A DNA stretch of 28,508 nt from an uncultured Streptomycetaceae bacterium (GCA_964621335.1 CAZULX010000442.1:1-28508); one strand, 5' to 3'; counted from the first letter of the stretch, positions 17,059-19,200 are shown. Made by a program: numbers and translations. The notes: generated by a model from the letters alone, not told the origin.

Positions 17059-19200
17059 TCAGCACGGCCCCCGCGGCACTCGCTTGTCGTCGGGGATGGG
17101 ACCGAGCTCGGCGTCGATAAAGGCTTTGTCGGCTGCGTCGCAAGCGCTCGGCGTATCGCCCGCGGGTACCATTGCTTCGTGCGACTTTTCTTTCCGGTGC
17201 AGGAGCACTTCGACTCGGCGCAGATGCGGAAACACTTTTTCCCAGCGCGCGCGCTGACCGAGGCTCTTGCCCTCCGCGTCCTTGCCGTCGATAAACGCCT
17301 GAATGTCGGCAAGCGCCTGTTGGCGTTGTACCGGATCGCTCCGGCGCGCCCCGTCCACTCCGAGCAGATCGAGCCTGCCGTTTTCATCGAGGCCGCGCAG
17401 CTTCTCCGAGAGCTCGCGCACGAGCTCGCGGTCGTACGCCTCTTTGCCTTCGCGCGATGAGGACTCTCCCAGCAACTCGCCGATGCCTTTGGGCGTCGGC
17501 AATGTGGCGTGGATCTGCTTCTGCGCGAGCTCGGCACCGATCGCGGCGTGTGCGTGCTTCGCCCGTTTCGCACCCAGCTTTTCGTTGTACGCCCGGCGCG
17601 CTTCGGGGGACGCGTATCCCAGAATATCCGTTACAAAGAAGCCGCTGCCGATCAGGCCCGCGATGGCGGCGACTTGGGCCTTGAATTCAGCATCGTGTGC
17701 CGGGACATCGCTGTCGTAGAGATAGAGCATGCGCTCGGTCTTGTCGCCCACCGGCTGATCGATCACGGGTCGCGTGTGCGCGGTGACGTTACGGCGGCAG
17801 GTGTAGTCGGGTCGCGCCGGCGGGCAGTCGCAGCCATAGCAGCTCACCGCCTTCGGTTTCTCAGGCTTGTCGAGCGCCACGCTGGGTCCGCAGAGAAGTT
17901 TGTCGTTGCCGGGCCCCTCGTGAGTATAGGTGCACCCGAGCGCCACACCCGTTTTGCCGATCGGCGCCTGCGCCTGCACGCTCGTCGTCTGTTGCGACGA
18001 GCTCCCACCTCCGGCCGGCGTGGTGGTCTTGTCGACGAATTTCACTTCGACCGTGAGCGGGCCGAGGTTGAGCTGCCCGCGCACGTAGCGATCGACTTCG
18101 TGTTGGACGTCGTTCTGCGTGATGCCCGCGCCCGCCTCGGCGAGCACCTGCACTTTGCCGTTCGCTGTATCGACGACGAGCCGGACTTTTACCTGCGCCT
18201 GTTGCTCCTGAGCGCCGGCTTTGCTTTCGCCGGACACGGTGACGTCGAGCGTGCGGTCGATCGTGAAGCTCACGTGTCCGCTCGCGGAGACGGTGGCGCT
18301 GTCTACTGCGTTGCGCAGCGCGTCCTCAGCGCCCACCGGATTGCTCCCCACCGATCTCAACAGGTCCTTGGCCGCCCGTTCCACATCCGAATAATCGATG
18401 CTCGCGCCGCTCGTCAACTGCACCTTGCCTTTGCAGATCCAGTAGCGCAGTCCGATCGCCTTCGCGTTTTCGTCCCAGTAGAAGACGTCCCTGCGCGGGC
18501 CCGACTGCCTTTCCGGCACTGGAGTGCACGGCCGTTCGATGAGCGAGCGCGTAACGCTCACCGCCGTGTGTTCGTCAATGCGGCGCTCGCGCGTGCCCTC
18601 CGCAGCACTCTTCCGCTGCAACCGCCGCTGCACGGGTGCGCCTGCCGCACTGGGCACTACGTAAGCCGTCCGCCCCGCGATGACGGCGTCGGCGCTCGCA
18701 TCGGCCGCGCGCTCGAGCGGCGAATCCGCACTGTCGATATCGACCTCGCTCGCCGCAGCGGCGCCGGCGACGCTGCGTTGCTGCACCGTGTGCGCGAGCT
18801 CGTGTGCGAGGAGGTGCAGACCGTCGCCCGCCTGCGGCCTGAACTGCCCGGCAGCGAAGTGAATGTGCTGCCCGAAAGTAAACGCATGTGCTTCGAGCGC
18901 GCGCGCGGCCGAGTGACTGGCGCTGTCGTCATGGACGCGAACGTTCGCGAAGCTCAATCCGAATCGCGGCTCGAGCCGTTCCCGCCAAGGAGGCGCGAGG
19001 GGTTGACCGCCGCGTTCGAATTCGGCCGCCGCCGGTGCGCTCACTTGCTGCCACCCGCCGGTGCCTTTGCGCTGCAGACGCTTCTTCCTGCACGCCTCGC
19101 ACTCGCCCTGCGCTTTCGCTCCGCACGCGCACGCACGTTGCAGCAACCGGGTCGCGGATACTGATTTACTGCTGGCAACCGAGGCGAGCTGGGCGCTCAT
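17059..19200 (-). CDS. DUF4157 (eCIS core domain) protein with C-terminal OmpA-like domain
   Basis: LQRACACG..GECEAC leader. LEPRFGLSFANVRVHDD...AHAFTFGQHIHF...LHLLAHELAHTVQQR (DUF4157; HELAH at 18790-18804). ILGYASPE...YNEKLGAKRA...GIGE...RRVEV (OmpA_C-like). Confidence 0.85.
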   Translation of the reverse strand: MSAQLASVASSKSVSATRLLQRACACGAKAQGECEACRKKRLQRKGTGGWQQVSAPAAAEFERGGQPLAPPWRERLEPRFGLSFANVRVHDDSASHSAARALEAHAFTFGQHIHFAAGQFRPQAGDGLHLLAHELAHTVQQRSVAGAAAASEVDIDSADSPLERAADASADAVIAGRTAYVVPSAAGAPVQRRLQRKSAAEGTRERRIDEHTAVSVTRSLIERPCTPVPERQSGPRRDVFYWDENAKAIGLRYWICKGKVQLTSGASIDYSDVERAAKDLLRSVGSNPVGAEDALRNAVDSATVSASGHVSFTIDRTLDVTVSGESKAGAQEQQAQVKVRLVVDTANGKVQVLAEAGAGITQNDVQHEVDRYVRGQLNLGPLTVEVKFVDKTTTPAGGGSSSQQTTSVQAQAPIGKTGVALGCTYTHEGPGNDKLLCGPSVALDKPEKPKAVSCYGCDCPPARPDYTCRRNVTAHTRPVIDQPVGDKTERMLYLYDSDVPAHDAEFKAQVAAIAGLIGSGFFVTDILGYASPEARRAYNEKLGAKRAKHAHAAIGAELAQKQIHATLPTPKGIGELLGESSSREGKEAYDRELVRELSEKLRGLDENGRLDLLGVDGARRSDPVQRQQALADIQAFIDGKDAEGKSLGQRARWEKVFPHLRRVEVLLHRKEKSHEAMVPAGDTPSACDAADKAFIDAELGPIPDDKRVPRGPC

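Follow-up and report, generated by a model that had tools for sequence, protein, structure and literature searches.

The described proteins that most closely resemble the one analyzed here belong to a class that was predicted by computer in 2012 by Zhang, de Souza, Anantharaman, Iyer and Aravind (PMC3482391), who applied the name “Tox-OmpA” to the combination of DUF4157, the PVC-metallopeptidase domain with the signature HExxHxxQ-E, and a C-terminal OmpA domain. The C-terminal OmpA domains of PVC-metallopeptidase proteins were inferred in that study to be non-catalytic toxins which the peptidase releases, and it was likewise inferred that a wall binder without an export signal reaches its target by injection. 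The example given was a protein of Leptothrix cholodnii, probably Lcho_3055, whose DUF4157+OmpA gene is listed by Geller et al. 2021 directly behind afp15. The AlgoCIS proteins Cgo1 and Cgo2 (2022; PROCIS preprint 2026) are cargo of the tube lumen whose loading needs a disordered N-terminus, while DUF4157 is dispensable for loading and the toxicity of Cgo1 is independent of its metalloprotease motifs; a role in cargo loading has been reported for Alg15 and Pvc15. Two further DUF4157 proteins are physically associated with the spike or tube-initiator complex: Tme of S. davawensis, a protein of 2247 aa with an N-terminal DUF4157 and conserved synteny, which is mostly disordered or helical, contains transmembrane helices, ends in a nuclease, and was co-purified with VgrG and the tube initiator; and Sle2 of S. 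lividans, a small adaptor which interacts with the effector Sle1 through the N-terminal region of the latter, was tested against spike-complex proteins, and has been proposed to form a bridge between Sle1 and the baseplate core.

The gene analyzed here lies inside a complete operon for an extracellular contractile injection system (eCIS), a machine resembling a phage tail, in the window (the whole 28,508-nucleotide stretch of DNA under analysis), together with genes for a sheath, a tube, a Pvc16_N cap, an AAA+ ATPase, CIS_tube, a VgrG-like protein, gp25, Baseplate_J and a DUF6519 fibre. The reading frame proposed in the initial annotation is present in the ORF list, with its stop codon at 17059-17061, and the peptides that were quoted there (VSASGHVSFTID, VKVRLVVD, LTVEVKFVD, VALGCTYTHE, SCYGCDC..DYTC and RRVEV) all occur in the translation. 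Its ATG overlaps the stop of a preceding 83-aa ORF (ATGA), whose own start at 19448 falls among the final codons of the ORF for the AAA+ ATPase (end 19445), and ORFs of 81-93 aa occupy the equivalent place in three related loci (L001, L003 and L004). The true start of the AAA+ ATPase is probably downstream of 21811, and by analogy this protein is presumed to be the cargo loader of the eCIS in the window. A sigma-54 promoter was considered and set aside, as one site is well placed but the number of sites equals the chance expectation.

Table 1. Coordinates of the 713-aa gene, its predicted parts and its immediate neighbours in the window.
Feature	Nucleotides	Strand	Evidence
Whole gene; DUF4157 / beta-rich / OmpA-like protein, 713 aa	17059..19200	-	ORF list; homologues; operon position
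N-terminal region, aa 1-66, predicted disordered, basic	19003..19200	-	pLDDT; Cys and QR conservation
DUF4157 / eCIS_core / PVC-metallopeptidase domain, aa 67-143	18772..19002	-	Pfam; invariant residues
Third LQR motif (aa 194-196), where the DUF4157 module meets the C-terminal part; candidate processing site	18613..18621	-	Conservation
Beta-rich region, aa 197-450	17851..18612	-	AlphaFold2; alternating hydrophobicity; Foldseek
Cys/Pro linker, C454-x2-C457-x-C459-PP-x-x-P-x-Y-x-C468	17797..17841	-	Residue conservation
Divergent OmpA-like domain, aa 485-670	17191..17748	-	Alignment; profile; Pfam; model; Foldseek; hhalign
C-terminal tail, aa 671-713; C687, P709 and C713 (last residue) are invariant	17062..17190	-	Alignment
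Small 83-aa ORF	19197..19448	-	ORF list
eCIS AAA+ ATPase, Afp15/Pvc15-like, WHD and AAA	19445..21811	-	Pfam
Variable slot between the DUF4157 and CIS_tube genes: 334-aa protein (16017-17021) and 140-aa protein (15579-16001)	15579..17021	-	

Residue conservation is stated throughout for an alignment of 33 full-length homologues, which share 40-70% identity with the 713-aa protein. The protein is made up, in order, of a disordered leader with four Cys, DUF4157, a stretch of beta strands about 250 residues long, a Cys linker, an OmpA-like domain and a tail with two Cys, and beyond the leader it has eight conserved Cys (C225, C256, C454, C457, C459, C468, C687 and C713). A hydropathy scan, which is a heuristic and not a dedicated predictor, found neither a signal-peptide-like N-terminus nor a conserved hydrophobic segment of transmembrane length in any of the 33 members, in agreement with the initial annotation as far as the signal peptide is concerned, and no member has a lipobox. 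NCBIfam and PHROGs contain no match for the protein or for its unnamed neighbours, and a single-sequence search of PDB sequences returned only noise (best E = 0.17). Among 185,579 species genomes, in which the organism of the window is not represented, the best match to the C-terminal part has 50% identity; the sequence itself occurs only in metagenome assemblies from soil and sediment, and none of the RNA runs contains it.

We consider the 713-aa protein to be a conserved, lineage-specific eCIS cargo, a long form of “Tox-OmpA” which either damages the envelope of the target cell or acts there as a wall-anchored platform, and we assign this reading a probability of about one half. That the protein is cargo, as had been proposed initially, is well supported, by analogy, through the operon context and through an architecture like that of Cgo1 and Cgo2, with which it shares a disordered N-terminus, a central DUF4157, a variable C-terminal domain and a place in an eCIS cluster with an AAA+ ATPase; tube-lumen location and N-terminus-dependent loading have been demonstrated for Cgo1 and Cgo2 only, the C-terminal domains are unrelated, and the leaders are system-specific. 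The two AlgoCIS results on DUF4157 given above, for loading and for toxicity, were counted against the cargo-toxin reading. The likeness to Tox-OmpA extends from the order of the domains, an N-terminal PVC-metallopeptidase and then, close to the C-terminus, a domain of the OmpA superfamily, to the lack of a signal peptide, the position of the gene right behind the AAA+ gene of an eCIS operon and the proposed non-catalytic binding to peptidoglycan or its precursors. The initial proposal of an injected wall binder is compatible with the context so far as injection is concerned, but the idea itself had already been published as Tox-OmpA (PMC3482391). The present protein differs from that class in having about 290 residues of beta-rich domain and a 4-Cys linker between the modules, an OmpA-like domain which is too divergent for Pfam and includes a helical insert some 80 residues long, and a 43-residue Cys tail after RRVEV, so that the OmpA-like domain does not form the very end of the protein. 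In the short forms P0084 and P0090 a bona fide OmpA domain lies some 70 residues past DUF4157, and other DUF4157 proteins carry such a domain with or without Ntox44 or a metallopeptidase.

The position of the gene is constant. The slot between the AAA+ ATPase and CIS_tube genes holds the DUF4157 gene in all 20 of the related loci, whose hosts are Xanthomonadales, Burkholderiales, one alphaproteobacterium and two Chloroflexi genomes, with Pseudoxanthomonas sangjuensis DSM 28345, Pseudoxanthomonas sp. 10H and Dyella ginsengisoli LA-4 as cultivable hosts of the family; the two Chloroflexi genomes were counted against the cargo-toxin reading. In five loci (L001, L005, L012, L018 and L019) the CIS_tube match starts at most about 70 nt past the family match or slightly overlaps it. 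The variable slot downstream contrasts with this constancy: neither the 334-aa nor the 140-aa protein has a homologue in the 20 related loci, and the C-terminal domain of the 334-aa protein is found fused behind DUF4157 in other proteins. The related loci have no conserved immunity gene beside the DUF4157 gene, and this absence, the fixed slot and the replacement of a ligand-motif Asp by Ser described below are three facts that one would not readily expect of an ordinary interchangeable toxin. For a polymorphic toxin it would be unusual to be kept in a single slot at 31-70% identity while variable effectors have a slot of their own, and this suggests a core role.

Such a role would also be filled by a core assembly or adaptor component which is not a toxin and which occupies the position of the tape measure in phage tails, an explanation that we regard as unlikely but as deserving serious weight. 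Here DUF4157 would dock on the complex of spike and tube initiator, the body of the protein would fill or plug the tube and recruit the variable effectors, and the OmpA-like domain would become active only after ejection, as in the wall-directed domains of phage tape measures. The invariable slot directly upstream of CIS_tube argues for this explanation, as do the precedents of Tme and Sle2, with which the protein shares a DUF4157 that is N-terminal or stands alone and conserved synteny by baseplate or spike genes (in the case of Tme, specifically an N-terminal DUF4157 and a conserved position by the tube-initiator and spike genes), and so does the fact that neither Pfam nor PHROGs recognizes a tape-measure gene in the window. 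The identity of the DUF4157-gene product moreover falls roughly in parallel with that of the structural genes across the loci; its level of 31-70%, against 78-91% for the tube, nevertheless means that the gene diverges faster than tube and sheath, which argues in the other direction. Also opposed to the adaptor explanation are the folded beta and OmpA-like domains with their conserved Cys, which resemble a working payload and which neither Tme nor Sle2 possesses, and the lack in the model of any long helical or coiled-coil stretch or of transmembrane helices, the hallmarks of tape measures and of Tme. Identification of the protein as a tape measure in the strict sense was abandoned because the model has no helical body and is, in predicted secondary structure, mostly beta beside the OmpA-like fold; PHROGs gives no hit.

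The N-terminal half of the protein is, judging from its sequence, the standard cargo module of an eCIS, a disordered basic leader with four Cys joined to a DUF4157 zincin domain. The pLDDT of the AlphaFold2 model is below 50 for aa 1-56, and the leader as a whole has 11 K+R against 4 D+E. The Cys leader noted at the outset takes the form of a CxC-x7-CxxC knuckle (nt 19090-19131) whose members C24, C26, C34 and C37 are each at least 90% conserved, with an LQR motif on either side (aa 20-22 and 42-44). Since AlgoCIS loading needs a disordered N-terminus, we read this leader as a putative loading sequence for the particle. DUF4157, with the intact HELAH that had been recognized initially, is matched by PF13699/eCIS_core at 99.6 bits, where the cut-off is 22 (E = 1.1e-28); HELAH corresponds to aa 133-137 (nt 18790-18804), the third ligand E163 lies slightly downstream of the domain, and H133, E134, H137, Q140 and E163 are invariant, which gives the HExxHxxQ...E zincin signature of the PVC-metallopeptidases. 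In the third LQR motif, Q195 and R196 are invariant. Across 213 DUF4157 proteins, motifs of this type occur 535 times compared to an expected count of 106, with a positional peak 50-69 aa beyond HExxH. The positional conservation of [LIVM]QR motifs around DUF4157 is a hint, if an indirect one, of autoproteolytic release of the C-terminal part.

The beta-rich region begins with a small sheet containing the invariant pair C225/C256 and a W242-D243 motif, followed by low-confidence helices (aa 270-301) and then by a nine-strand meander (aa 308-441, nt 17878-18279; pLDDT 60-87). AlphaFold2 places 15 strands within aa 193-441, of which the nine in the meander are 7-13 residues long. The alternating polarity that had been described from the sequence is borne out by the composition of these strands, with 74% aliphatic, small or aromatic residues on one face and 76% Ser/Thr, charged or amide/His on the other; aromatic residues make up only 8.6% of the hydrophobic face. 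Structure prediction of this region, which the initial annotation had suggested in order to distinguish a barrel from a soluble sheet, yields a two-faced meander with matches to barrel walls, but the domain modelled alone is an open curved sheet of moderate confidence (pLDDT 61, pTM 0.50) and the matches are not significant. In a Foldseek search of the PDB, 48 of the top 50 hits are outer-membrane barrels, matched over about 140 columns to the walls of 12- to 26-strand barrels with E = 0.01-0.3 and rmsd 4-9 A, and no hit reaches E <= 1e-3. The hits also include the lipid-binding beta belt of ApoB. In a viral structure library the domain matches long beta stretches of tail fibres (E ~1e-3, rmsd 13-20 A), and phage-encoded outer-membrane barrels are also found among its structural matches. 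Assignment of the domain to Porin_4, PagL or YadA_anchor was rejected because all their hits are below threshold and confined to few members; for Porin_4 (PF13609) the window protein scores 20.2 bits against a cut-off of 27, and only 3 of the 33 members have a hit.

The Cys linker, another element of the initial annotation, has three invariant Cys (C454, C459 and C468) and a fourth, C457, which is at least 90% conserved; it accompanies the OmpA-like module in many of the 267 clusters recovered in a profile search with the C-terminal part. The OmpA-like domain that follows appears from sequence and model to be real but divergent, and the helical insert of the original assignment is present in the model. 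The window protein has no hit to PF00691 even at E <= 1 (gathering score 27.2 bits), and 18 of the 33 homologues match this family weakly and below threshold, the best with E = 1.9e-4. The family profile detects solved OmpA-like and Pal domains with E = 0.003-0.2, hhalign against DUF4157 proteins carrying a bona fide OmpA domain gives 86% probability (E = 5e-6), and the best Foldseek hit of this part is RmpM (1r1m; probability 1.00, target TM-score 0.55, E = 7e-3). The model, in which a beta-alpha-beta-alpha-beta-beta fold was sought, has a strand at 485-493, a helix at 503-518, a strand at 522-528, a helix at 537-560, the insert (about aa 576-655, nt 17236-17475) and a strand at 662-669, with R661-R-V-E-V665 as the closing strand. 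In complexes of Pal and OmpA the ligand motif is G-H/Y-T-D ... N..L...R-R-A, in which the Asp and an Arg contact diaminopimelate. The corresponding core motif here is G528-Y-A-S531-P-E533 ... N539..L542...R546-A547, with N539, L542, R546 and A547 invariant; the canonical Asp aligns with the invariant Ser531, and an invariant Glu, E533, stands two residues on. Peptidoglycan binding by the window protein is not assured, because the Pfam OmpA threshold is failed and the Asp is replaced by Ser531. The tail contains short strands and one helix in the model (pLDDT 64-92).

The arrangement in which a hinge joins a two-faced beta domain to an OmpA-like domain of a family that binds peptidoglycan is also that of OmpA and OprF, and the solved OmpA-like domains of RmpM, OprF and Pal are the best sequence and fold matches of the C-terminal part. 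The Cys/Pro hinge, with its four Cys, is one that may resemble the hinge of OprF. It is therefore conceivable, though in our judgement improbable, that the C-terminal 517 residues are a delivered mimic of an OmpA/OprF-like outer-membrane protein, a beta barrel or oligomeric pore clamped to peptidoglycan, which would be injected unfolded, fold in the target membrane and either kill by leakage or provide a channel for toxins injected along with it. Folding of outer-membrane proteins into bilayers can proceed without energy input, and the AAA+ protein is thought to unfold eCIS cargo for loading; the nine strands are strongly two-faced and most are of membrane-spanning length, and the almost exclusive matching to outer-membrane barrels and the ApoB belt, the appearance of phage-encoded barrels among the matches and the sub-threshold matches to Porin_4, PagL and YadA_anchor in several members point the same way. 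These structural matches are, however, all non-significant and cover parts of the walls of much larger barrels, while for small closed barrels, among them OmpX and KdgM, the TM-scores are only 0.34-0.42; an odd number of strands is predicted, closure is not seen in the model, aromatic residues are few, and the alignment of the subclade of the window protein contains no conserved terminal aromatic beta-signal. Unlike OmpA and OprF, moreover, the protein has no signal peptide, its beta domain has no sequence homology to OmpA barrels, its ligand motif has Ser for Asp, and it is fused behind an eCIS cargo module. The profile of the C-terminal part, searched against 1.84 billion representatives, detected homologues of the beta domain in no protein that lacks DUF4157, with or without a signal peptide; the only hits with signal peptides are weak and involve Bacteroidetes-type OmpA-like domains in the region of the “SPE” motif. 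A closed barrel and the insertion of the beta domain into a membrane are, on the model, unproven.

OmpA-like domains fix the type VI secretion machine to the wall. That the protein serves the producer cell in this manner, binding its own peptidoglycan in order to anchor the machine or to aid the release of particles at lysis, is very improbable: the constancy of the gene in the operon and the tie between an OmpA-like domain and a contractile injection machine, as in T6SS accessory proteins of the TagL type, would suit it, but those are membrane proteins of the producer which reach the periplasm by transmembrane segments or signal peptides, whereas the present family, having no signal peptide, lipobox or transmembrane helix, has no route by which the OmpA-like domain could reach the periplasm of the producer before lysis, and the cargo-type leader and DUF4157 module and a tail fibre whose baseplate-attachment domain is typical of released particles are also at odds with it.

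Under the reading of the protein as conserved injected cargo, its parts may be arranged in the following sequence of events. The leader, with the help of the AAA+ ATPase, would bring the protein into the tube lumen or onto the core of spike and baseplate, and contraction would expel it into the envelope of a target bacterium; the proposed delivery by injection is what would allow a wall-binding domain to function without a Sec signal. The DUF4157 peptidase may then cleave at the conserved LQR motifs, freeing the C-terminal 517 residues, whose eight conserved Cys could form disulfides in the oxidising periplasm or bind metal. The OmpA-like domain would hold peptidoglycan or its peptide precursors non-covalently, and the two-faced meander might sink its hydrophobic face into a membrane or an oligomer. 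Either the envelope would be harmed directly, or the protein would form a wall-anchored platform that assists the variable effectors of the downstream slot. That the target is a bacterium is plausible because wall-directed modules occur in relatives and in neighbouring slots: other DUF4157 proteins carry YkuD, PG_binding_1, VanY or polysaccharide deacetylase, and a protein with PG_binding_1 and CHAP sits in the variable slot of one related locus (L011).

Three features of the family seem not to have been described before: the long beta-meander domain, for which the weak structural matches are nearly all to outer-membrane barrel walls; the constancy of the gene's position within the present eCIS lineage; and a superfamily of clusters (more than 260) with the Cys linker and the OmpA-like module. 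DUF4157 is the best marker of eCIS cargo, and the family provides a concrete case for its role, with a cargo that is constant over an eCIS lineage spanning Proteobacteria and Chloroflexi. The domains of the protein predict action in the cell envelope and not in the cytoplasm, which bears on the site at which cargo is released in two-membrane bacteria, on the distinction between DUF4157 proteins that are helpers and those that are toxins, and on whether the peptidase has defined cleavage sites. If the mimicry of an outer-membrane protein proved true, the protein would be the first effector known from a contractile injection system to enter membranes by means of beta structure, and a beta pore anchored to the wall, or a conduit for the variable effectors of the downstream slot, would account for one constant cargo beside others that vary. 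If the OmpA-like module binds peptidoglycan, it would represent the non-enzymatic antibacterial mode of action predicted in the 2012 study, and it might be of use in the engineering of antibacterial eCIS particles.

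The open reading frame (ORF) that encodes the DUF4157 protein yields 713 residues, and its ATG shares an ATGA with the stop of the preceding 83-codon ORF. The Pfam family PF13699 (DUF4157, renamed eCIS_core) matches residues 67-143 (E = 1.1e-28), HELAH occupies residues 133-137, and a database search returned 32 further full-length homologues with 40-70% identity. H133, E134, H137, Q140 and E163 are invariant in the alignment of the 33 sequences, and the HExxHxxQ-E signature is the one by which Zhang et al. 2012 (PMC3482391) defined the PVC-metallopeptidase. Because the signature residues are invariant among the homologues, the ORF is a genuine conserved gene, unlike the numerous chance ORFs of GC-rich DNA; GC near the gene is 64-67%. 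Long ORFs on the opposite strand (for example 17509-19164 (+), 551 aa) were rejected as spurious, being usual in GC-rich DNA and having no support. The peptides quoted in the initial annotation, which had proposed an injected antibacterial effector, are all present in the translation. A scan of the family found a hydrophobic N-terminus or conserved transmembrane-length segment in none of its members.

The entire window is a single extracellular contractile injection system (eCIS) operon on the minus strand, which comprises, in order, the sigma-54 activator, sheath and tube (1-3); two unnamed genes, the Pvc16_N cap and an AAA+ ATPase with a winged-helix domain (4-6); the 83-aa ORF, the DUF4157 gene and two small genes (7-9); CIS_tube, a 379-aa gene, a VgrG-like OB-fold spike and gp25 (10-13); and two Baseplate_J proteins, a 722-aa tail protein and a DUF6519 plus beta-helix protein (14-16), DUF6519 being eBAP5, the domain that attaches eCIS tail fibres to the baseplate. 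No tape-measure gene was recognised in the whole window with Pfam or PHROGs. A -24/-12-like site with one mismatch (CGGCACGACTCTTGC, 26701-26715 (-)) lies between the activator and sheath genes; the window has no more of these sites than chance predicts. ORFs of 81-93 aa occupy the place equivalent to that of the 83-aa ORF in three related loci (L001, L003 and L004) and are poorly conserved (37% identity to L001), with no tblastn match to the window's copy beyond L001; the product may be a chaperone or adaptor.

Features of the eCIS operon, of the 713-aa protein and of the variable slot in related loci
Feature	Position	Strand	Remarks
Sigma-54 enhancer-binding activator	26853-27857	(-)	Kept upstream of operon in window and related loci L001-L004
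Unnamed genes	22737-23642, 23447-24181, 13394-14533		
83-aa ORF	19197-19448	(-)	4-nt overlaps with AAA+ ATPase gene at start and DUF4157 gene at stop
713-aa gene	17059..19200	(-)	
334-aa protein	16017-17021	(-)	Pro/Ala-rich first ~110 residues, then 225-residue domain
140-aa ORF	15579-16001	(-)	Directly 3' of 334-aa gene
LQR copies in 713-aa protein	aa 20-22, 42-44, 194-196 (19135-19143, 19069-19077, 18613-18621)	(-)	
Leader	aa 1-56		Disordered, basic; C24, C26, C34, C37 (AlphaFold2)
Zincin-like domain	aa 60-175		Confident (AlphaFold2)
Short strands	aa 193-257		Invariant pair C225/C256 (AlphaFold2, alignment)
Helices	aa 270-301		Low confidence (AlphaFold2)
Nine-strand meander	aa 308-441		Strand length 7-13 residues (AlphaFold2)
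Linker	aa 454-468		C-x2-C-x-C-P-P-x-x-P-x-Y-x-C
Beta-alpha-beta-alpha unit	aa 485-560		AlphaFold2
Helical insert	aa 576-655		AlphaFold2
RRVEV strand	aa 662-669		AlphaFold2
Tail	aa 671-713		C687 and C713 invariant
Slot genes, L003	12133-15032		
Slot genes, L006	9539-12480		
Slot genes, L011	2962-3723		
Slot genes, L004, L007, L008, L014, L015, L017			

The 713-aa family gene lies between the AAA+ ATPase and CIS_tube genes in all 20 related loci, and the gap that separates it from CIS_tube ranges from near zero to 3 kb, with a gene content that differs by locus: further DUF4157 proteins with Peptidase_M91-like or lethal-factor-like ends, DUF922 proteins and, in the Stenotrophobium locus L011, a PG_binding_1 plus CHAP wall hydrolase without an obvious signal peptide by eye. 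This space is, by comparison of the loci, a polymorphic effector slot, and because the position of the family gene is fixed while the gap genes vary, the same comparison marks the 713-aa protein as the constant member of the lineage. The slot of the window holds genes for 334-aa and 140-aa proteins that have no counterparts in the 20 related loci. The first ~110 residues of the 334-aa protein are probably disordered; its C-terminal 225 residues recur in 57 other proteins, and since at least 8 of these carry the domain fused behind DUF4157, the protein is probably another eCIS cargo of an interchangeable kind. The 140-aa ORF, for which Pfam, NCBIfam and PHROGs give no match and the related loci no homologue, and which shows no signal peptide by eye, could encode an immunity or accessory protein that goes with the 334-aa protein. 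Since the 713-aa gene is constant beside variable neighbours and is accompanied by no immunity gene, substantial weight is given to the possibility that its product is a helper or adaptor instead of a simple toxin.

The 713-aa protein is assigned with high confidence to the cargo-type proteins of eCIS, with an OmpA-like end. DUF4157 was described by Geller et al. as a core eCIS domain that stands N-terminal to toxins or adjacent to them, and Xu et al. found that Cgo1 and Cgo2, which share the build of a disordered N-terminus, DUF4157 and a variable C-terminal domain, fill the lumen of the AlgoCIS tube and depart upon contraction. According to a 2026 preprint on AlgoCIS, loading needs the N-terminus, not DUF4157, and is mediated by an AAA+ protein. 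Among the DUF4157 proteins of Streptomyces, Tme co-purifies with VgrG and the tube initiator, and Sle2 binds the effector Sle1 and has been proposed to bridge it to the baseplate core.

An AlphaFold2 model was built from the 33-sequence alignment (mean pLDDT 71, pTM 0.36), and in it the segment ahead of RRVEV is helical, as the initial annotation had proposed. PF00691 does not match the 713-aa protein alone even at E <= 1; sub-threshold matches occur in 18 of the 33 homologues. The family profile aligns with solved OmpA-like domains (an outer-membrane protein domain, OprF, Pal and OmpA) at E = 0.003-0.2 over F-x-x-D-S ... G-Y-A-S-P-E ... Y-N-x-x-L-x-x-R-R-A, hhalign, run against four DUF4157 proteins in which Pfam recognises a bona fide OmpA domain, gives 86% probability (E = 5e-6), and in Foldseek the full model finds its best match in the OmpA-like domain of RmpM (probability 1.00, target TM-score 0.55). 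Despite the absent PF00691 match, a variant OmpA-like fold is accepted as the prediction for the C-terminal domain because four independent lines agree. The canonical Asp of the G-H-T-D motif is replaced in these alignments by S531, which is invariant, as are E533 two positions on and N539, L542, R546 and A547.

Across the family, the meander is markedly two-faced: Leu/Ile/Val/Met account for 46% of one face, Ala/Gly for 19% and aromatic residues for 9%, and on the other Ser/Thr make up 33%, charged residues 30% and Asn/Gln/His 12%. Below RmpM, the full model matches a long series of outer-membrane barrels at E = 0.01-0.1 with low TM-scores. When residues 197-450 were modelled separately (pLDDT 61, pTM 0.50, meander pLDDT 60-87), barrels (LptD, KdgM, BtuB, FhaC, porins, OmpX, TamA and BamA) made up 48 of the 50 best PDB matches in Foldseek, the ApoB100 lipid-binding beta belt was also among the best, and none reached E <= 1e-3. 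These matches span ~140 columns of wall in far larger barrels, and small closed barrels fit poorly; a viral library gave similarly weak scores to tail-fibre stretches and phage-encoded outer-membrane barrels. Matches to Porin_4, PagL and YadA_anchor lean toward a barrel but fall below cut-offs, and a search of 1.84 billion representative proteins with a profile built on the C-terminal 517 residues turned up no relatives of this beta region in proteins that lack DUF4157. On the choice between barrel and sheet that the initial annotation had put to structure prediction, the models, through matches that are all weak, support an open, curved, two-faced sheet and do not establish a closed barrel. 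The ~45 hydrophobic side chains of this sheet must be buried, which could happen in a membrane, within an oligomer or against the helices of residues 270-301. A reading of low probability is that the protein is a delivered outer-membrane-protein mimic.

The motif [LIVM]-Q-R is enriched ~5-fold in 213 DUF4157 proteins (535 observed, 106 expected from shuffles) and its distance from HExxH is sharply fixed: two copies precede HExxH by 91-130 aa, on both sides of a CxC..CxxC knuckle, one follows it by 10-19 aa and one by 50-69 aa. These may be processing or recognition sites of the DUF4157 peptidase; no description of the motif was found in the papers on DUF4157 and eCIS that were consulted.

The cargo-type module, the operon context, the fixed slot, the absent export signal and the conserved Cys residues are established from the sequences, and the OmpA-like fold as a prediction. 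In the mechanism proposed for the cargo-type protein, the leader and the AAA+ ATPase would load it into the tube or onto the spike complex, contraction would drive it into the envelope of a target bacterium, the peptidase may cleave at the conserved LQR motifs, the Cys residues would oxidise or hold metal, the OmpA-like domain would bind peptidoglycan or its precursors, and the two-faced sheet would contact a membrane or oligomerise. The full chain, from loading to sheet engagement, is given a probability of about 0.5. The initial annotation's observation on the protein is confirmed, and its interpretation for the most part repeats a published computational class, Tox-OmpA, of Zhang et al. 2012 (PMC3482391), who described PVC-delivered proteins with a putative OmpA-superfamily toxin domain (example Leptothrix cholodnii) and proposed that this domain binds peptide precursors and so disturbs wall synthesis, and that the metallopeptidase sets the toxin free. 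The tables of Geller et al. list Lcho_3055 as DUF4157 plus OmpA, directly after afp15, without comment, and no experimental work on DUF4157 plus OmpA-superfamily proteins was found in the literature. What appears to be new is the beta-meander domain and its likeness to barrel walls, the large superfamily formed by the Cys-linker plus OmpA-like module, the conservation of the fixed slot across phyla, and the positional LQR motifs.

A profile search with the C-terminal 517 residues recovered 267 clusters at E <= 1e-3, the nearest of which have the entire C-terminal part in common; in a larger number the shared part is limited to the last hairpin, the CxxCxCPP linker and the OmpA-like module, which follow differing middle regions. 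Since eCIS_core is present in 59 of 60 distant members sampled and the unit stands behind varied middles, the Cys-linker plus OmpA-like unit is, on these profile matches, a widespread C-terminal module of DUF4157 proteins. Read-word matching found the sequence in soil and sediment metagenomes and in no RNA data. In a set of genomes with one per species, 16 species carry the full family, among them Rhizobacter, two Pseudoxanthomonas species, Dyella, Stenotrophobium, Rhodanobacter, a Micropepsaceae genome, Rubrivivax, Ideonella, other Burkholderiales and two Chloroflexi genomes. The last are the metagenome-assembled genomes of loci L018 and L019 (Anaerolineae and Chloroflexia), which share the operon layout and carry a family member at 31-34% identity, and this combination implies that the whole eCIS has been transferred between phyla.
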